Assembly: GCA_949286215.1 (NCBI GenBank)
Contig: CASDYX010000014.1
Span: 18,373-82,372, forward strand
Reading direction: 5' to 3'
DNA: 64,000 nt
Source: an uncultured Pseudomonadota bacterium
Lineage (GTDB): Bacteria > Pseudomonadota > Alphaproteobacteria > RF32 > CAG-239
Shown here: in pieces, positions 4,627 to 18,140 of the stretch
How positions within the stretch are numbered: position 1 is the stretch's first letter
How the letters are laid out: each line of letters begins with the position of its first letter
The notes under the pieces: generated by a model
What the model saw: only the letters and a program-made list of their open reading frames with translations
Database searches by the model: none
Told to the model about the DNA's origin: nothing
Position numbers and translations under genes: made by a program

Positions 4627-6009
4627 ATGAATTCACGCTTAAAATTTATATTATTGCTAGCAATCTTTATTGGTGGTTTTGCAAGCCTTTCGCTGGAATT
4701 AATTGTTATGCGGCAATTAAGCAGTTTTGTTGGCTCCACAGCCATCACCGCCTCAATTATAATTGGTGTTATAATGGCTTTTATGTCTTGGGGATATTAT
4801 GCGGGCTCAATCTATCCCCTCAGAGGAAAAGCTGTACGTCGCCGTGTGGTTCATGCTTTTTATTCTTTGGCGTTGTTGGTTATACTTTCAGCCAGCTATA
4901 TTTTAATAGATTTATATTTTTCGCTAATGGATTGGTTGTCTGTTGATAATAACATCGCCAAAACCTTCATCTATTGTTTGTTGTTGCTGTCTTGTCCGGC
5001 TTATTTGTTTGGGCTTATTACATCGCTGTTGAGTCGCTATTTGCACAAATACAATCGTAACTTTACCGGTAAATTGATGGCGGTGGATACCATAGGTTCA
5101 GTCTTGGGCTCAATTCTTTCCACTTTGGTCTTAATGCCTTTAATTGGGGTAAATTACACCATCGTTTTGTTAGTCGTCTTGTGTTTGCTTGGCGCTAGCT
5201 TATTAAATAAAAAGCCGGAAATCTATTGGTCTGTTCTAATTTTGGCTTTTGCCGTTATGCTCAACCGGAGTTCATTATTATATAAATTGTTTTATATTGT
5301 TGAGAATAACGCAGTTTCCACAATTTCCATCTTTGATACTGACGAAGGTCGGTCAAAGTTTATGTCCATTAACGGGAGTTCATCTTCCAAAATTTCGGCA
5401 GATGAAAAATTGTTGTTTCCTTATATTCGTTATATTGAGCAAAATTTCATCAAAAATCTGCCTCAACAGAAAGTCAGTAATATCCTGATTCTAGGGGCAG
5501 GGGGCTTTACTTTGGGACGAGATGATGACCAAAACACATATACTTACGTTGATGTAGATAAGGTTTTGCTCCCTTTATCTGAGAAATATTTTCTGAAAGA
5601 AAAATTAGGTGCCAATAAAAAATTTGTTGTACAAGATGCCAATCAATTTCTGAAGGAAGATACAACCAAGTATGACTTAATTGTTTTGGATACCTATTCC
5701 TCTGCGCGGGTAATCCCTTCAGATTTGGTAACAAAAGAATATTTTCAGCGCGTTAAAAATCATTTGAAGAGTAATGGCATTGTGGTAATGAATTTAATTA
5801 CCGACGCCGCATTTAAAACCGATTTTAGTATGAATTTGGATAATACCTTGCGTTCGGTTTTCCCGCTTAATCTATCAAGACAAGTTATAGGAGAAATAAA
5901 TCCATGGCAAATAGATGAGCCCAAAAACTTAATCTATGTTTACTATCATCATGCCAACCCGCAGAAAATATATACCATCAATAAAAATAGCTCTTATTTG
6001 GATAACTAA
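4627..6009 (+). CDS. Fused membrane domain / spermidine-synthase-like SAM-dependent methyltransferase
   Basis: About six TM helices followed by ILILGAGG, VDVD, VQDA and YDLIVLDTY motifs. Confidence 0.8.
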   Translation: MNSRLKFILLLAIFIGGFASLSLELIVMRQLSSFVGSTAITASIIIGVIMAFMSWGYYAGSIYPLRGKAVRRRVVHAFYSLALLVILSASYILIDLYFSLMDWLSVDNNIAKTFIYCLLLLSCPAYLFGLITSLLSRYLHKYNRNFTGKLMAVDTIGSVLGSILSTLVLMPLIGVNYTIVLLVVLCLLGASLLNKKPEIYWSVLILAFAVMLNRSSLLYKLFYIVENNAVSTISIFDTDEGRSKFMSINGSSSSKISADEKLLFPYIRYIEQNFIKNLPQQKVSNILILGAGGFTLGRDDDQNTYTYVDVDKVLLPLSEKYFLKEKLGANKKFVVQDANQFLKEDTTKYDLIVLDTYSSARVIPSDLVTKEYFQRVKNHLKSNGIVVMNLITDAAFKTDFSMNLDNTLRSVFPLNLSRQVIGEINPWQIDEPKNLIYVYYHHANPQKIYTINKNSSYLDN

Positions 6010-8806: not shown

Positions 8807-9706
8807 ATGTCTGAGAATACAAATGTAATGGTTGTGAACAACAACGCTAAATTACCTCTTGTTATTGAAGAAAACAGTTTATTTGCCTATTTTGAAAGCA
8901 TAAAAAAATTCCCGGTATTAAGTGAAACGGAAGAACAAAATCTGATTGTCGATTTTAAGCAAAACGGCAACTTGAAAGCTGCTGAAAAATTGGTTACCTC
9001 TCATTTGCGTCTGGCAGCCAAAATTGCGCTGACATATCGTCGTTATGGACTTCCTTTAGCTGATATTGTATCTGAAGCAAACATTGGTTTGATGCAAGCT
9101 GTTAAAAAATTTGACCTTGATAAAAAGGTTCGCCTTTCAACCTACGCAATTTGGTGGATTAAGGCGGCCATTAATGATTATATTTTGCGTTCTTGGTCCT
9201 TGGTAAAGATAGGGACGGTTGCAGCGCAAAAGAAGCTGTTCTACAATTTGAGCCGCATTAAGGCACGTTTAGGTTTGTATGAAAATAAAGCCCTTGAGCC
9301 TGAAGTCGTCAAAACCATTGCAAAAGAATTGGTTGTAGATGAGCAAGATGTTGTGGAGATGAATCAACGCCTTGGCGGAGATAAGTCTTTGAACGTTGCC
9401 GCCGGAGATGACGGAACAAGTGAACAGATAGACTTTTTGGTAGATAACCGCCAAAACATAGAGGCTAAAATCGCCAATAAAGAAGAAGCCAAATTCAAAC
9501 AAAAGATTTTGCAAGATTGTTTGAAAAAATTAAATGAGCGTGAGCGTTATATTATCACCAATCGTATGTTGGTTGATGAGCCGGTTACGCTGGAGGAATT
9601 AGGGGCGAAATTTGGTGTCAGCCGCGAGCGTGTTCGTCAAGTAGAAAAGAAGGCTTTTGAGCATTTGTCAGAGCTTGTCAAACTTGCATTAGCGGAAAAA
9701 TTGTGA
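8807..9706 (+). CDS. rpoH: RNA polymerase sigma-32 factor
   Basis: Region 2 (DIVSEANIGLMQAVKKFD, TYAIWWI), RpoH box WSLVKIGTVAAQKKLFYNL, region 4 SRERVRQVE. Confidence 0.93.
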   Translation: MSENTNVMVVNNNAKLPLVIEENSLFAYFESIKKFPVLSETEEQNLIVDFKQNGNLKAAEKLVTSHLRLAAKIALTYRRYGLPLADIVSEANIGLMQAVKKFDLDKKVRLSTYAIWWIKAAINDYILRSWSLVKIGTVAAQKKLFYNLSRIKARLGLYENKALEPEVVKTIAKELVVDEQDVVEMNQRLGGDKSLNVAAGDDGTSEQIDFLVDNRQNIEAKIANKEEAKFKQKILQDCLKKLNERERYIITNRMLVDEPVTLEELGAKFGVSRERVRQVEKKAFEHLSELVKLALAEKL

Positions 9707-10982: not shown

Positions 10983-11585
10983 ATGAAAAGAACAAACAAC
11001 AAATTTCGTAATAATAATTACAACAACCAGATTTATTCATTAAACTATAAGTTTGACAGCAACTCGATTGCCGGAAAAATCAGCGGCACAGCGTTAGACT
11101 TAATCAAACGCTATAACGAGTTAGCCAAAGAGGCTCATACGAACAATGACTATGTGAGCGCTGAAGTGTTCCGTCAATATGCTGAACACTATCGTAAAAT
11201 CGTGACCGAAATCAACGAGAAGAAGACCCAAGCTCAAAATGCTAAAAATGCAGCTCAACTGACTTTGGTTGAAAATAAGACCGAAGAAGACAAAGCTGAT
11301 TCTCAAGAGCAAGTCCAAGATTTAGCTGAAAGTGATTCTCAGTCTATTCGTGAAGACGAGGATATTGAGCCTCACTTAGCTTCTGTTACATCGCTGGAAA
11401 CCTTTTTAGCCGAAGCAGATGCTGAAACTCAACCGCAAGCCTCATTACCGGAAGAAAAGCCCACAACAGCTGAGAAAAAATCTTTTACTGTGATTGAAAT
11501 TCCTACATCAGAAGCAAAAGTTTTGAGTTCTGAAGAAAGCAAACCCAAAAGAACATATCGTCGTAAATTAGCCGCATCGGAGTAA
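10983..11585 (+). CDS. DUF4167-domain protein
   Basis: FDSNS..KISGTA..LIKRYNELAKEA...AEVFRQYAEHYRKI; usual alphaproteobacterial position between prmC and clpB. Confidence 0.8.
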   Translation: MKRTNNKFRNNNYNNQIYSLNYKFDSNSIAGKISGTALDLIKRYNELAKEAHTNNDYVSAEVFRQYAEHYRKIVTEINEKKTQAQNAKNAAQLTLVENKTEEDKADSQEQVQDLAESDSQSIREDEDIEPHLASVTSLETFLAEADAETQPQASLPEEKPTTAEKKSFTVIEIPTSEAKVLSSEESKPKRTYRRKLAASE

Positions 11586-11609: not shown

Positions 11610-12764
11610 ATGTTTATGATAGGGGCCTTGATAGTAGCCATTGCCGCAACTGTTATCACCATCAAGACTTTAGTTGGCTATATAGATTTACGTCTATCTG
11701 TAAAAATTATTGCTTCTCTGGCGATTATATTTTCTTGGTTCGCACCGGTAATTGTTGGTGGATTGCGTGCAACATCTTTGGGTGATAGCGCAGTCTTCCC
11801 GTACTTTTCTAATGTTGCTTATTTTTTGTTTGGAGCAGCTTTTATATTATTGGTTTTGCTTTTAGTTCGAGATTTTATTTGGTTTGGGGTTTATGAAATT
11901 GCCAAAGTGTTGAAATCAGTTCATGCCCCAATTTTTAATCCCTCAGATAATCACAAATTAAATCTAGCCAATGTCTATACTTTGGGACTGACTTTTGCCT
12001 TGAGTTTTTATGCTTGCTATGAGGCATTGAAGGTTCCGAGCGTTAAGGAAGTTACCATTTCCAGCCCCAAAATAACCCAAGCCTACACAATAGTTCAGTT
12101 AAGTGATATTCACGTTAACCGCACCACGCCTCTGGCTCACCTGCAAAAACTAGTTGAAGAGGTCAACGCTCTTAATCCGGATTTGATTTTGCTCACGGGG
12201 GATATTGGTGACGACAAAGTGTCTAAAGTTGAAGCACAAATGTCGGTTTTAAAAGGCTTAAAAAGCAAGTACGGCGAATATATTGTCTATGGCAATCATG
12301 AGCTTTATAATGGTTTCCCTGGTTGGCAGTTTAAATATTCCAACCAAGGCTGGACAGCTTTGTTTAATTCAGGTGTAAAGATTAAGGATACAAATCTCTA
12401 TATTGGTGGCATTCCTGATATTAGTTTTATTCGAGGAGCACGTTTTTTTAAATTAGATATGAATAAAACATTTGAAAATGCTCACTCTGATGATTATAAA
12501 ATTTTATTGTCGCACTCTCCCAAGTTTTATAAGGAAGATGAGTTCAAACCGAGCTATGACTTACAGCTCTCTGGTCACACCCACGGTGGGCAAATTTTCC
12601 CGTTCCATTATTTGGTATGGCAAGCAAATAAGTATTTGGCAGGGCTTTATGATTTAGAAGGAGCCAAACTTTATGTTTCCCGAGGAGCCGGATATTGGGG
12701 CGCTCCGTTACGTCTGTTTGCGCCATCGGAAATCACGCTGATAAAATTAGTTCCGCAAAAATAA
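11610..12764 (+). CDS. Membrane-anchored metallophosphoesterase (YkuE/YaeI-like)
   Basis: TM N-terminus; SDIH, TGD, GNHE, LSH and SGHTHGGQ motifs. Confidence 0.9.
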   Translation: MFMIGALIVAIAATVITIKTLVGYIDLRLSVKIIASLAIIFSWFAPVIVGGLRATSLGDSAVFPYFSNVAYFLFGAAFILLVLLLVRDFIWFGVYEIAKVLKSVHAPIFNPSDNHKLNLANVYTLGLTFALSFYACYEALKVPSVKEVTISSPKITQAYTIVQLSDIHVNRTTPLAHLQKLVEEVNALNPDLILLTGDIGDDKVSKVEAQMSVLKGLKSKYGEYIVYGNHELYNGFPGWQFKYSNQGWTALFNSGVKIKDTNLYIGGIPDISFIRGARFFKLDMNKTFENAHSDDYKILLSHSPKFYKEDEFKPSYDLQLSGHTHGGQIFPFHYLVWQANKYLAGLYDLEGAKLYVSRGAGYWGAPLRLFAPSEITLIKLVPQK

Positions 12765-12839
12765 TTTTTCTAAAAAACTTGATTTACCCCTCCTTTCATA
12801 ACTATATTCTAATAAGAAGTAGAAAGAAGGGATAAGACA

Positions 12840-15428
12840 ATGGATTTTGAAAAACTAACCAATAAGGCTAAAGAATTAGTTCAGGATGTGGTTAACTTGG
12901 CATCAACCAAGAAGCACCAATATATCGCGCCTGAACATATACTAAAAGTTCTTCTTGAAGATAAAGATACACTGATAAAAGACCTCCTGCAAAAATCAGG
13001 CGGAAATGTCGAAACCGTTATCAGTCAAACCGATGATGCTATCCGTAAAATTCCGCAAGTCTCCGGAGCCGCAGTTCAAAGCTTGATGTCACAAGATTTC
13101 ACTTGTGTTATGCAAGAGGCTGAAGATTTGGCCGAAAAATCAGGTGACCAATTTGTTACGACCGAGAGAATTTTGCAAGCATTAGCCGCCACATCGGGAA
13201 CCAAGGCTTATGATATTTTGCGTAACGCTGGCGTCAACTATGGACGTTTGGAACAAGCTATTAACGAGTATCGTAAAGGCCGAGTTGCGGATTCGGAAAG
13301 CGCAGAAGAAAATTTTGAAGCCTTAAAGAAATACGCTATTGATATCACAGCTAAAGCCAGAGAAGGAAAACTTGACCCGGTTGTTGGCAGAGAGCATGAG
13401 ATTCGTCGAACCATACAAGTTTTGTCTCGTCGAACCAAAAACAATCCGGTATTGATTGGTGAGCCTGGTGTTGGTAAAACCGCAATTGTCGAGGGCTTGG
13501 CAATGCGAATTGTTAATAACGACGTTCCTGAAAGCTTGCATGATAAAAGATTGCTGGCTCTGGATATGGGAGCCTTGATTGCCGGCGCTAAGTTTAGAGG
13601 AGAGTTTGAGGAACGCTTAAAAGCCGTTCTGAAAGACGTTGAAGCCTCTGATGGCAATATCATCTTGTTTATTGATGAAATGCACACCATCGTTGGAGCC
13701 GGAGCAAGTGAAGGTTCAATGGATGCCTCTAACTTGCTGAAACCAGCATTAGCAAGAGGCGAGCTTCACTGCCTTGGCGCTACCACTTTGAATGAATATA
13801 AAAAATACGTCGAAAAAGATGCGGCTTTAGCAAGAAGGTTCCAACCGGTATTTGTTGATGAGCCGAGCGTTGAAGAAACCATTTCGATTCTGCGTGGCAT
13901 TAAGGATAAGTTTGAGCTCCACCACGGGGTTAAAATTTCTGATAATGCATTGATTGCAGCAGCTACTTTGTCGAACAGATATATTAGCGACCGTTTCTTG
14001 CCTGATAAGGCAATAGACCTGATGGATGAAGCCGCCAGTGCTTTGCGAATGTCAATTGATTCAAAACCCGAGGAGTTAGATGAACTTGACCGCCGAATTT
14101 TGCAGCTCAAAATAGAGCGTGAAGCCCTCAAGAAAGAAACCGACGAGGCCTCAAAATCGCGTCTTGAACAAATCGGCTATGAAATTTCAGGGCTTGAAGT
14201 TAAAGCCAAAGGACTAAATGAGAAATGGAAAGCTGAAAAACAAGGTCTTGCCAATGTAACCGAATTAAAGGATAAATTGGATAAGGCGCGTATTGAGGCA
14301 GAAATTGCTCAACGTGAAGGTCGTTTTGAAAGAGCAGGGGAACTGCAGTATAGTGTCATTCCTGACTTGCAAAATCAGCTCAAGAAAATTGAAGAAAAAG
14401 CTGCTTCAGCGAATGCTCATATTCACGAAACCGTCACCGATGAAAATATTGCAGCGGTTGTTTCAAAGTGGACAGGCATTCCGGTTGATAAGATGTTGCA
14501 AGGCGAACGTGAAAAACTGGTTCATATGGAAGACTACCTTGGCAAACGTGTCATTGGTCAAAAAGAGGCAATTGCCGCGGTTTCAAATGCGGTCAGACGC
14601 TCTCGAGCCGGTATTAATGACGGTAGCCAACCCATAGGTTCGTTCTTGTTCTTAGGACCGACCGGTGTAGGTAAAACTGAATTAAGCAAGGCATTGGCAG
14701 AGTTCTTGTTCAATGATGAGCATGCTCTGTTGCGAATAGATATGTCAGAATATATGGAAAAGCATGCCGTTGCTCGTTTAATTGGTTCACCTCCGGGCTA
14801 TGTCGGCTATGAAGAAGGCGGTGTTTTAACCGAAGCGGTACGTCGTCGTCCATATCAGGTTATTTTGTTTGATGAGGTTGAAAAAGCGCATCCTGATATT
14901 TTCAATGTCTTGTTACAAGTCTTGGATGATGGCCGTTTGACAGATGGTAAAGGCCGCACGGTTGACTTTAAGAATACTTTGATAATCATGACCTCAAACT
15001 TAGGCTCAGATATCTTGGCTAATGCCACGGGAGCAGATGATCCCAAAAAGATAAAGGCAAGAGTAATGGAAATTGTCAAAGCGTCATTCCGTCCGGAATT
15101 TATCAACCGTATTGATGAAATAAGCTTGTTCCATCGCTTAGATAAGAGTAATATAAAAGAAATCGCCAAGATACAAATAGCAGGCATTGAAAAACGCTTA
15201 GCCGAGAAGAATATTAAGTTGCATGTCAACGAGATGGCTGAAGCGTGGATTGTCAATAACGGTTATGATCCGATTTATGGAGCAAGACCACTAAAACGCT
15301 TGCTAAAAAATCAAATAGAGAATAAATTGGCGTTAAAGATTCTGGATGGTGAAATCGCCGAGAATGATACGGCGGACATCATTGTCAGCAACGGACAATT
15401 AGAAATAGTAAAGAGTAAGAAAAAGTAA
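12840..15428 (+). CDS. clpB: ATP-dependent disaggregase ClpB
   Basis: Two AAA+ modules ([16 protein letters not shown]), coiled-coil middle domain, GARPLKR. Confidence 0.97.
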
Positions 15429-15856
15429 TGAACAAATTATTTCAGCAAGCATTGGAGGTGGCACGCACCTATAGTGTGTCCACCCCCGAAAACAGCATTG
15501 TGCTATACAGCATTAGTTTTCAGCCGACCAAAGAAAATCGGGACAAGGCTTTTGACTATACCAGTAAACACAGTGATAAAATGGTAATCGAGCATACGGA
15601 TTGCGGTGCCAAATTGGTTGAAATGGGACTGCTTAGCCACGATTCCGGCCTAAGTCAGGAGCAAGTTGCCGAAATTTGGAGTATTGCCTCCAAAAGATTT
15701 ATTGGCGAGGCCAAAGGCGAAGTAACGGCATTTGTAAATAATGCCGACCCCAGAAGTGTGTTCTGCAAGATGGAATTGCCGAATATTCTGACTAATCCGA
15801 ACTTAACTAAGATTAATGGCATAGATAAACACGAATTTGCCCGTCAGTTTAAATAA
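15428..15856 (+). CDS. Putative ADP-ribosyl cyclase/CD38-like NAD+ glycohydrolase domain protein
   Basis: IVLYS, VIEHT..G, IWSIASKRF..EAKGEVTAFV and SVF..MELP.I follow the order of CD38 LLWS, TLEDTLLG, FWKTVSRRFAEAA..VHVML and STFGSVEV.NL; alignment by eye. Confidence 0.55.
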   Translation: MNKLFQQALEVARTYSVSTPENSIVLYSISFQPTKENRDKAFDYTSKHSDKMVIEHTDCGAKLVEMGLLSHDSGLSQEQVAEIWSIASKRFIGEAKGEVTAFVNNADPRSVFCKMELPNILTNPNLTKINGIDKHEFARQFK

Positions 15857-15939
15857 AACTTTACAAAGTAAGGATTAAAGCTTAAATAAAGACTCAAATA
15901 ACAATTATTGGGTCTTTATTTATTTTAAAAATCAAAATT

Positions 15940-16518
15940 ATGGAAGCAAATCGAGAAATCGTAAAAGTTCTGCAAGGTATTGTGCTACCGGCAGTTAAAC
16001 AATTAAATGCTCTATCTTCAGCCGAAAGGGAATTTTATGCACCTTACATGATAGGGGGCAAAGATGCCATTATGAAAGTTCAAGTTCTGTTGTTTCAGAA
16101 TTTGTACACGCCGGCAGTGATTACGGAACTCATCAAGCGAGATGCTTGCTTGTGCAAACCCTATTTAAAAATGTCGCAAAATAAACTCTTGCAACGCAAT
16201 GCTAATTTACCCGAGTTTAGAAGGCAAATGATTGCCGTAGGTAATGAAAAGCTATTGCAAGATTTTTTAGAGATTTATTCTCTGGGTGCCGAGGATGAAA
16301 AACAGCTTTTAGATTATCGCCTAGAGCATGGCAAAATTTCGACAGAGGAGCCAGATGAGTTTATGAGGTTGTATTTTCAAACCAAAGGCCTCCAAAATAC
16401 AACATTATCATTGTTAAGCCGCAAAGAATACCAACTCTATTGGGATTTATATTGCGATTCCGTCCCCGTTTCTACAGGACAAAAATTAAAACACAAACTT
16501 TTGTCTTGGTTTCATTAA
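15940..16518 (+). CDS. Hypothetical protein
   Basis: 192-aa ORF, no motif recognised. Confidence 0.6.
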   Translation: MEANREIVKVLQGIVLPAVKQLNALSSAEREFYAPYMIGGKDAIMKVQVLLFQNLYTPAVITELIKRDACLCKPYLKMSQNKLLQRNANLPEFRRQMIAVGNEKLLQDFLEIYSLGAEDEKQLLDYRLEHGKISTEEPDEFMRLYFQTKGLQNTTLSLLSRKEYQLYWDLYCDSVPVSTGQKLKHKLLSWFH

Positions 16519-16577: not shown

Positions 16578-18025
16578 TTAATACTTGATAACATATCTGC
16601 CACCACATGGAACTATGGAACCTATTGATTCAATTCCACCTGATTGGTTACCCCAAGAAGCAAAAACTTTATCATCTCTTTGTACGCAGAGACCTCCATT
16701 CGCACTATATAATTGTGGTTTAGATAACCTCATTAAAGCTACATTGACATCTCCACGAACTTTATATAATGAGGAAAATGCAGTTGGAGTTAATACTGTC
16801 CATTTCCCTGCAGAACACCAAGAACAATCTGCACTGAAGGAGGAAACACGTCTAGGATATTTAAGCGCTGAACCTGAACTTTCATCTAAACTAATTGCTA
16901 ATTTTGCCACAGGATCAAAAACAACAGCTACTGCAGTTTTGTTATAGTTAACGGAAGAAATTGAACAAGTTTTATCGGAATATAAAATAGAGCCTGCGGA
17001 ACAGTCTGCCACACAACTATTTCCCGACTTAGTATATCCAGAATTACAACTCCAAGATTGAATTTTAGATTGGCAATCAGAAAAATAAGAGCAGCTAGCG
17101 TTACTAGGACAAGAACTAATGACGGCAGAGCGATTATGACAATTATCAGTATAAGCTATTTCGCATTTTGATTGACAATCACCAAATGCTTGCTTGCAAC
17201 CATAAGGAGCAGAAACAGCTGTACGATTTCGACAATTATCAGCGTATGCTTTTTGACATTTAGATTTGCAATCAGAAAAATATGTCTCACATCCATAAGG
17301 AGTCTGTACTGAAGTTCTATTGTGACAATTGTCAGGATATGGAGTTTTACATATATTATTGCAAGGTGCAGCATAATATTCTTTACACCCCCATTGTCCG
17401 TTATTGGCATTAGGACAGACACAAGTAGCATATCTTGTACCAGTATCATCGCTACAAGAATTTCCTTTTATTTGAGGGGAATTACATGCCGGATAAGGAT
17501 AAGCGGCAGTATCGCAGTAACAACGGTATTTTCCGCCACAACTATCAGAACTTAATCTTTTAGGACTAGAACATTGAGCTGCTGTATATTTATAGATTGC
17601 ATCACAACATCTGTCATATAATTTATCATTATAAGGGCACGCTCGATTAAATAAACCGGATGCACAAGATGTAATGCTATAGCCTAGGCGCTTACAATTA
17701 TCTCCAGTAGGATCAGAAAAGTCATTGTTTTTAGCGTCTTCATTATTAAAGTCCATATCTTTATTTCCGGTGATAAAATAGACACCGGCTGTTTGATAGT
17801 TTGTACGATAGGGCAAGCCCTCATTCAGGCTTGCCCCTGACAAAGATTCAAAGGTTTGGTTTAGACTGGTTCTTACGAAGTGCGTGTATTGTGGACTTGC
17901 ACCTTGTAATTTGGTTGAAACATAAGACTTGCACCTTGTAATTTGGTTGAAACATAATTTTCACTTACACCGCCCAATCCGGTTAGTGCAAGAATTGATA
18001 CTCCTATCACAAGCTGCTTTCTCAT
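16578..18025 (-). pseudogene. Secreted cysteine-rich repeat protein, frameshifted by a 32-bp tandem duplication
   Basis: ATG at 18025 encodes a signal-like MRKQLVIGVSILALTGLGG; it is out of frame with ORF 16578..17843 unless one repeat copy is removed; three ~31-aa Y.DNC.NR..V..PYGC...F.DC.SKC repeats. Confidence 0.75.
17894..17957 (+). repeat. Tandem duplication, 2 x 32 bp
   Basis: GACTTGCACCTTGTAATTTGGTTGAAACATAA at 17894-17925 and 17926-17957. Confidence 0.95.
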
Positions 18026-18140
18026 AATACACCTCATTATAACTGAACTTTGTCACTTTATAATCTAGCATATTGTGAAAACGATGTCAAATATTTTTAT
18101 TTGAGCAGTTTTATTTTGGCTAAAGAGGATAAATCGATTT

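Follow-up and report, generated by a model that had tools for sequence, protein, structure and literature searches.

A stand-alone ADP-ribosyl-cyclase-like gene coupled to clpB in uncultured gut Alphaproteobacteria

Gene organization of the clpB–ARC locus

The DNA analyzed here (the window) is a stretch of 64,000 nucleotides (nt) on contig CASDYX010000014.1 of an uncultured alphaproteobacterium, and all coordinates refer to this window unless they are given with L, G or C labels. Immediately behind clpB it carries a stand-alone gene for a small protein of the ADP-ribosyl-cyclase (ARC) fold, which was recognized from its open reading frame (ORF), an AlphaFold2 (AF2) model, Foldseek searches and profile matches to the Protein Data Bank (PDB). 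This gene and the features that bear directly on its expression are:

15428..15856, + strand: stand-alone gene of the ADP-ribosyl-cyclase (CD38/Tac1) fold, encoding 142 amino acids (aa) (ORF, AF2, Foldseek and PDB profile matches)
15424..15432, + strand: overlap of the clpB stop and the ARC start, TAATG, the translational coupling junction (sequence)
12840..15428, + strand: clpB, gene of the ATP-dependent disaggregase and the cistron of the operon nearest to the promoter (TIGR03346)
12778..12808, + strand: σ32-like promoter CTTGATTT-N16-CTATAT(T), 32 nt before the clpB ATG (sequence)
15883..15926, + strand: A/U-rich 15-bp hairpin followed by UUUU, the probable intrinsic terminator of the clpB–ARC transcript (RNA fold)

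The ATG of the ARC gene and the TAA of clpB have one base in common (aagTAATGaac). A preliminary description of the sequence had already pointed to this overlap, which is present in the DNA as stated, and coupling to the upstream gene is kept across the related loci treated below. The 862-aa protein encoded upstream is ClpB proper, with a score of 1346.6 bits against TIGR03346 (cut-off 1232.1 bits).

Fold and sequence homology

The AF2 model of the 142-aa protein, which was built on the family alignment, reached a predicted local distance difference test (pLDDT) score of 90.2 and a predicted template modelling (pTM) score of 0.83, and the modelled structure is a two-lobed α/β ARC fold. In a Foldseek comparison with the PDB, the best 50 matches were all bacterial ARC toxins, CD38 or Aplysia cyclase, with a probability of 1.00. 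The comparison with CD38 structures that had been proposed as a check in the preliminary description thus agrees with its claim of a stand-alone CD38/ARC-like protein, which is also borne out by the profile matches described next.

Searched alone against the PDB, the 142-aa protein matched the toxins Tac1 (9ouf) and ARCtox (9ro8) with E-values of 5.7e-4 and 0.015, respectively, and Aplysia cyclase with 0.11. Single-sequence searches of Pfam, NCBIfam, PADLOC and PHROGs returned sub-threshold or chance matches alone. Since a single sequence gives such weak matches, family profiles were needed for identification. The family of the protein is tight, with members of 140–150 aa, 139 clusters at E ≤ 0.01 and a mean column identity of 63%, and PF02267 was matched by 26 of 33 family members (best E = 9.8e-6). 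Among 1.84 billion representative proteins 1111 relatives were found, many of which are toxin-type C-terminal domains, including one domain on a 1084-aa haemagglutinin-repeat protein and another on a 2405-aa protein. A profile in which the ARC family was mixed with toxin-type relatives (profile A2) was searched against the PDB and matched, over residues 18–137, 9ro8 (E = 1.3e-11), 9ouf (E = 9.1e-11), porcine CD38 (E = 2.7e-8) and Aplysia cyclase (E = 1.7e-7). Judged by these profile comparisons, the ARC likeness of the protein is far beyond chance.

Catalytic residues

The 142-aa protein carries the catalytic constellation Y27-S28, E55-x-T57, W84, S88, R90, S110-x-F112 and E116. Residues were counted in the profile A2 alignments against the numbering of the two 2025 papers on Tac1 and ARCtox, which gives the following correspondences:

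Y27: Tac1 W490, ARCtox W273
E55: Tac1 E516, ARCtox E299; TLE(D/N)T motif of CD38 and Aplysia cyclase
W84: Tac1 W540, ARCtox W323
E116: Tac1 E573, ARCtox E356, Aplysia E179

All four aligned positions of Tac1 and ARCtox are catalytic residues that have been validated by mutation. Conservation was assessed across 85 related ARC loci, to which the synteny counts below likewise refer. E116 aligns with the essential catalytic Glu, which is E226 in CD38, and is invariant in all 85 loci. The second acid, E55 in the motif IEHT, aligns with CD38 E146 in addition to the toxin residues listed above and is Glu in 66 and Asp in 19 of the loci. In the active-site Trp pair (CD38 W125/W189; Tac1 W490/W540), W84 is invariant and the first position is occupied by Tyr in 83 of the 85 loci and otherwise by Phe; Tyr at this first aromatic position also occurs in most of the toxin-type relatives found by the ARC profile. 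Besides W84 and E116, the invariant residues are S28, N37, T57, G60, S88, R90, G97, F112 and P118. The family has signature residues of its own at D107/R109/H56, where the toxins have R/G/M.

The preliminary description had mapped short motifs of the protein onto those of CD38 and Aplysia cyclase, and hidden Markov model (HMM) alignments recovered the same assignments. VLYS falls on the FFWS/VFWS/MFWS motif, IEHT and IWSIASKRF fall on the TLE[SD]T and W..S motifs, and SVF...E aligns with the catalytic-Glu motif of Tac1, ARCtox, porcine CD38 and Aplysia cyclase.

Distribution, selection and phylogeny

Within the order to which the window belongs, 165 of 201 genomes, representing 17 of 22 genera, carry the ARC gene; all belong to one family with genomes of 1.2–2.0 Mb. 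The gene was found in none of 298 other alphaproteobacterial genomes, which represent about 250 genera. The related loci derive from uncultured gut Alphaproteobacteria (‘Candidatus Scatocola’, CAG:495 and metagenome-assembled genomes labelled ‘Azospirillum sp.’) of humans, ruminants, chickens and mice. Compared with close relatives, the ratio of nonsynonymous to synonymous substitution rates (dN/dS) of the ARC gene was about 0.02. Among the loci the ARC protein is 49–99% identical, versus about 40–50% for the neighboring metallophosphoesterase and DUF4167 proteins of the same loci. At its fixed housekeeping locus the ARC gene experiences strong purifying selection; it is near-core and passed on vertically.

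In a FastTree phylogeny of the domain sequences, the family nests in a clade of stand-alone proteins plus one ankyrin-repeat fusion, and this clade stands apart from the toxin C-terminal domains (support values of 0.38–0.93 on the path). Four relatives of the ARC clade (P0138, P0155, P0158 and P0159) carry fusions to ankyrin repeats or to long tails rich in K/E/Q or Pro and look like effectors directed at eukaryotic cells. More distant stand-alone relatives occur in heterogeneous, uninformative contexts, some of them in small operons whose genes are unknown.

The same genome also has a second, degenerate ARC paralog, outside the window (G000:C22:18681-19073, − strand, corresponding to L094 1495..1905, − strand). 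It encodes 136 aa with 29% identity and has neither the YS motif nor N37, and it shows the replacements W84→F, S88→R and, at the catalytic residue, E116→D. The paralog is confined to one genus and evolves fast, with 46–72% identity within the genus versus 96–99% for the main copy. It is located in a cluster of four small, unknown ORFs that is conserved, and it could be a pseudo-enzyme, a sensor or a regulator. In two of five genomes checked, one of them cut at a contig end, it adjoins nadE, and we regard this adjacency as a weak functional clue.

Genomic neighborhood across related loci

The ARC gene of the window is embedded in the following neighborhood:

8807..9706, + strand: rpoH (σ32), 334.6 bits against NF005143 (cut-off 241); clpB lies three genes downstream
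10983..11585, + strand: DUF4167 gene, part of the upstream conserved backbone (Pfam/NCBIfam)
11610..12764, + strand: gene of a membrane YaeI-like metallophosphoesterase, part of the upstream conserved backbone (Pfam/NCBIfam)
15940..16518, + strand: 192-aa orphan ORF downstream of the ARC gene, not a conserved ARC partner

Across the loci, the conserved backbone has the order rpoH – prmC – DUF4167 – YaeI-like metallophosphoesterase, and the ARC gene is consistently the last one in the cluster DUF4167–metallophosphoesterase–(clpB or HAD). The gene immediately upstream is clpB in 59 of the 85 loci and a HAD hydrolase in 19. The distance from the upstream stop to the ARC start is between −23 and +15 nt in 79 loci, including 27 loci with an 8-nt overlap and 14 with TAATG. 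The HAD hydrolase weakly resembles pyrimidine/nicotinamide mononucleotide (NMN) 5'-nucleotidases (TIGR01993, E = 1.4e-15, under the cut-off). The HAD-type loci (L001 5325..6008 and 18 others, e.g. L038, L045 and L053) form one subclade, in which the HAD gene is located between the metallophosphoesterase and ARC genes; the overlapping of these three genes suggests a phosphoesterase–nucleotidase–ARC operon. Those genomes of the family that have no ARC gene retain DUF4167–metallophosphoesterase–clpB (or HAD) unchanged. All 85 loci encode ARC proteins of 140–150 aa, except for two possible 181-aa starts: in L052 and L060 (4887/4890..5435) the ARC frame may begin earlier, and neither clpB nor HAD is found upstream. 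Unusual contexts of the ARC gene were also seen in L030, L050 and L057.

The gene downstream is variable, being a 301-aa orphan, a convergent 432-aa orphan, or lpxC–bamD–recN, and in L004 and L005 the ARC gene lies between clpB and lpxC without space for an immunity gene. The 192-aa ORF at 15940..16518, which the preliminary description had considered as a partner of the ARC gene, proved not to be co-conserved. A homolog follows the ARC gene in only 13 of the 85 loci, its sequence diverges much faster than that of ARC (42% vs 78% identity in L010), and only 7 close clusters were found among 5.8 billion proteins; on these grounds we reject it as a general immunity or partner gene. Searches of Pfam, NCBIfam and PADLOC with this ORF gave no match.

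Expression signals

Each of the 57 distinct clpB-type loci has the element (C)TTGATTT…C(C/T)TATAT between −50 and −73, and the flanking C residues of the element are largely invariant. It resembles the alphaproteobacterial σ32 consensus (CTTG-N17-18-CYTATNT). An element of the form TTG-N~19-CCTATAT also precedes the dnaK, lon, ftsH, cbpA/dnaJ-like and Bax1-I/YccA-like genes of the same genome (C8:44192, C15:40713, C28:11530, C4:16732 and C1:20647, respectively), and the heptamer CCTATAT is under-represented genome-wide (114 observed vs about 300 in shuffles). This shared element marks a candidate σ32 regulon of the family, and we infer from the sequence that the clpB promoter is σ32-dependent. 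In a genome-wide search with promoter regular expressions, the loose pattern was not enriched over shuffles and the strict pattern found almost nothing, because the spacing varies. The link to the heat-shock regulon is accordingly based on the inspection of individual genes and on the conservation in 57 loci.

Downstream of the ARC stop, the hairpin has a folding energy of −18.3 kcal/mol (z = −4.9; none of 200 shuffles was as good). A simple terminator scan missed it owing to the low G+C content. The simplest reading of these signals would be a bicistronic clpB–ARC heat-shock transcript on which ARC is translated by reinitiation. Heat-shock co-expression, as put forward in the preliminary description, is made more plausible by the σ32-like clpB promoter, by a −10 element common to dnaK, lon and ftsH, and by the hairpin; it may not extend to the HAD-type loci, about a fifth of the total, as the 14 examined show no such promoter.

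Predicted function and alternative explanations

We consider it likely that the 142-aa protein is a cytoplasmic, domesticated, non-toxin NAD(P)+ glycohydrolase/cyclase of the ‘Nac’ type that is co-expressed with ClpB. The full CD38/Tac1 catalytic set (aromatic-Ser, second Glu, Trp, Ser and Glu116) makes cleavage of the nicotinamide–ribose bond of NAD(P)+ the most likely reaction and, together with the strong purifying selection and the cytoplasmic location, argues for an active enzyme that uses NAD(P)+ like CD38 and Tac1. Among the functions considered in the preliminary description, that of a cytoplasmic NADase or cyclase would fit these features. The ARC gene may have been acquired once, by the ancestor of one small-genome gut alphaproteobacterial family, and then been retained, with near-core status, as the 3'-terminal member of the DUF4167–metallophosphoesterase–clpB cluster. 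Having no promoter of its own, it would depend for transcription on the σ32-type promoter of clpB; ribosomes would reach it by termination-reinitiation at the clpB stop (TAATG), and the clpB–ARC transcript would end at the hairpin behind the ARC gene. With a shared transcript and reinitiation, ARC would be made whenever ClpB is made, probably in smaller amounts. The enzyme would cleave NAD(P)+ via the usual ADP-ribosyl intermediate and release ADP-ribose (ADPR) and/or cyclic ADP-ribose (cADPR). As its physiological role we infer stress-linked NAD(P)+ turnover or an ADPR-type nucleotide signal, and not the killing of competitors or phage abortion.

Several observations weigh against this interpretation. 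The TM-scores of the Foldseek matches are no more than about 0.5–0.6, and the 142-aa protein alone scores 15.6 bits on PF02267 (E = 0.011), under the gathering cut-off of 25 bits. Tyr replaces the first catalytic Trp, and an Asp (D107) aligns with Tac1 R564, with an Arg two residues further on. The link to clpB is not universal, as 19 of the 85 loci have the HAD hydrolase (227–237 aa) in its place, and in a sister clade the ARC gene directly follows the metallophosphoesterase gene with a 20-nt overlap. The HAD and metallophosphoesterase contexts, and the genomes in which the backbone is intact and ARC is missing, weaken clpB as a candidate for a conserved functional partner. The ARC gene is absent from 18% of the genomes of the family and so is dispensable. 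The clpB promoter can also be read as a σ70 site (TTGATT-N18-TATATT), and no σ32-like element was present within 2.7 kb upstream in the 14 HAD-type loci examined, so that the heat-shock link is common and not universal. Furthermore, Tac1 mutants with greatly reduced NADase activity remain toxic in Escherichia coli; from this it follows that the ARC enzyme is slow or regulated, works chiefly as a cyclase, or uses another substrate. The Asp at the position of Tac1 R564 and a low level of coupled translation are candidate attenuations.

A more far-reaching version of the NAD(P)+ glycohydrolase/cyclase interpretation, which we consider doubtful, is that a CD38-type enzyme has been wired into the σ32 heat-shock regulon. 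Protein-damage stress would then give rise to cADPR/ADPR or to a controlled draw-down of NAD(P)+ as an intracellular signal, with the degenerate paralog or another protein as its sensor.

It is also conceivable, albeit unlikely, that the fold and chemistry of ARC were kept and the substrate changed. The protein would in this case act as an N-glycosidase or transglycosidase whose substrate is a different pyridine or purine nucleotide, in a nucleotide-salvage or damage-control module together with the neighboring phosphoesterases; candidate substrates would be NMN, nicotinic acid adenine dinucleotide (NaAD) or damaged NAD(P)H derivatives, and base exchange to NAADP (NaAD phosphate) could be included. 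Such a function would suit the constant position of ARC after a YaeI-like metallophosphoesterase, the 19 loci in which it follows the HAD protein with its faint likeness to pyrimidine/NMN 5'-nucleotidases, and the signature residues D107/R109/H56 that distinguish the family from the toxins (R/G/M), and a constitutive cytoplasmic NADase should do harm. However, all residues important for NAD(P)+ cleavage in Tac1, ARCtox and CD38 are retained, and the metallophosphoesterase–DUF4167 backbone is equally conserved without ARC, so that adjacency alone is no proof of a common pathway.

Toxin and defense functions were assessed from the architecture of the protein and from its genomic context. The protein is an ARC domain alone, without a delivery domain (LXG, PAAR, Rhs, VgrG or CdiA), and has neither a signal peptide nor an N-terminal extension, residues 3–14 forming helix 1 of the fold at high pLDDT in the AF2 model. 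No Imm74 was found anywhere in its own, 100% complete genome. The same genome contains no type VI secretion system (T6SS) sheath protein TssC/VipB and no Hcp; type VII secretion (T7SS) and contact-dependent inhibition (CDI) systems were not searched for. PADLOC returned a chance-level match only (E = 0.03), and the neighbors rpoH, prmC, clpB and lpxC provide no defense-island context. The statements of the preliminary description that there is no secretion domain and no obvious immunity gene hold for this domain-only protein and for the variable, sometimes housekeeping genes behind it. Its further suggestion of an abortive-defense enzyme is disfavored by the near-core, vertical distribution, the strong purifying selection and the fixed housekeeping locus. 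The near-core, single-locus, vertical pattern, in combination with the lack of a delivery domain, a secretion system and a co-conserved partner, argues against a polymorphic toxin, a toxin–antitoxin (TA) toxin or a defense gene.

For these reasons we judge it very unlikely that ARC is the toxin of a TA or abortive-infection pair with an unrecognized inhibitor, for which the 192-aa ORF, the degenerate paralog or ClpB-dependent turnover could be considered. Such a pair would agree with the fact that the characterized bacterial ARCs, Nac1 excepted, are toxins that have immunity proteins, with the occurrence of distant stand-alone relatives in small operons of unknown genes, and with the fast-evolving, apparently catalytically dead paralog in the same genome. 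Against it stand the near-core, single-locus and vertical occurrence of a gene with a dN/dS of 0.02, the missing PADLOC and Imm74 matches, and the lack of any co-conserved partner, given that the 192-aa ORF accompanies only 13 of the 85 loci, the paralog is restricted to one genus, and lpxC lies directly downstream in some loci.

Export by a non-classical route, as a secreted effector or interbacterial toxin, appears extremely improbable. Related domains are indeed fused to ankyrin repeats, filamentous-haemagglutinin repeats or long low-complexity tails, and the characterized Nac1 has a Sec signal. The present protein, however, starts with helix 1 of the fold and offers no signal peptide or extension, the genome has no T6SS sheath or Hcp, and the housekeeping synteny and strong conservation differ from the diversifying pattern of effectors. 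An identity of the upstream ATPase as ClpV of a T6SS was considered and rejected, because the ClpV model remained under its own cut-off in addition to the missing TssC and Hcp; the ATPase is ClpB. A non-catalytic NAD/ADPR-binding regulator or chaperone accessory that has retained the fold only, to which the tight coupling to ClpB, the Trp→Tyr exchange at the first aromatic position and the Arg→Asp exchange at the Tac1 R564 position might point, is hardly credible, since Glu116 and the entire active-site set do not vary among the 85 loci and the truly degenerate paralog has lost its active site (E→D, W→F, no YS motif).

Relation to known ARC proteins

Bacterial ADP-ribosyl cyclases were characterized only in 2025, and nearly all of them are secreted NAD-depleting toxins (PMC12356396, PMC12605009). 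ARC domains have been reported exclusively with secretion domains (PMC12605009). Nac1 from Actinophytocola is a non-toxic stand-alone bacterial ARC that makes cADPR plus ADPR and was purified from E. coli cytoplasm with no immunity protein (Colautti, Kim & Whitney, J Biol Chem 2025, PMC12356396). The ‘Nac’ group of that study, of which Nac1 is the one characterized member, appears to be the nearest published concept for the present family, which is set beside Nac1 by its published description. Both are stand-alone, have no polymorphic-toxin neighborhood or immunity gene, and keep the catalytic Glu. In contrast to the present family, which is cytoplasmic and retains the second acid (E55; Asp in 19/85), Nac1 carries a Sec signal peptide and has Ala where the second Glu would be. 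The neighborhoods of the few non-toxic stand-alone versions named in that study, Nac1 included, gave no clue to function (PMC12356396), whereas the present family is near-core in one alphaproteobacterial family and welded to clpB or HAD.

The best sequence and structure matches of the present protein are Tac1 (9ouf), a T7SS toxin of S. parasanguinis, and ARCtox (9ro8), a T6SS PAAR toxin of Pantoea ananatis; they share with it a minimal ARC domain of about 140–150 aa and four aligned catalytic positions. In these toxins the domain forms the C-terminus of a secreted LXG/PAAR protein, an immunity gene of the Imm74 type or another kind lies next to the toxin gene, and spread has been horizontal, whereas the present ARC has no delivery domain and no immunity gene, is inherited vertically among housekeeping neighbors, and differs by Tyr for the first Trp and Asp at R564. 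With CD38, CD157 and Aplysia ADP-ribosyl cyclase (PF02267) it shares the fold and the order of the catalytic motifs, and its S-x-F-x-x-x-E motif is nearer to the CD38/Aplysia versions than to that of Tac1. The eukaryotic enzymes, however, are disulfide-rich, extracellular or luminal glycoproteins of about 250 aa with an extra N-terminal helical region, and they are only about 15–22% identical to the present protein. Tox-ARC (Zhang et al., Biol Direct 2012, PMC3482391) belongs to the same superfamily and has the same residue pattern ([ST][DE], S, E), but it is defined by toxin architecture and Imm74/Imm63 immunity, and Alphaproteobacteria are not within its listed range (PMC3482391); none of these contextual features is found at the present gene. 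The present ARC is thus a contextually distinct version of a known kind of enzyme, and our literature search found no paper that connects ARC with clpB.

The clpB-linked family gives a first physiological context for non-toxin bacterial ARCs. It would tie an ARC to the clpB transcript, behind a heat-shock-type promoter, across tens of species of abundant, uncultured gut Alphaproteobacteria of humans and animals. Whether cADPR/ADPR plays a physiological role in bacteria becomes directly testable with one small, easily expressed protein. If it has the function we favor, the family would be a natural example of a toxin-type fold tamed for intracellular use, and an ARC that is truly wired to σ32 would represent the first bacterial ADP-ribosyl-cyclase pathway with a housekeeping function and a coupling to stress.

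Other features of the window

Further downstream, the − strand encodes a 421-aa protein (16578-17843) with about 40 Cys residues and three repeats of roughly 31 aa, for which family-model searches gave no match. Just upstream of this Cys-rich gene, a short separate ORF (17844-18037) carries a signal-peptide-like start.

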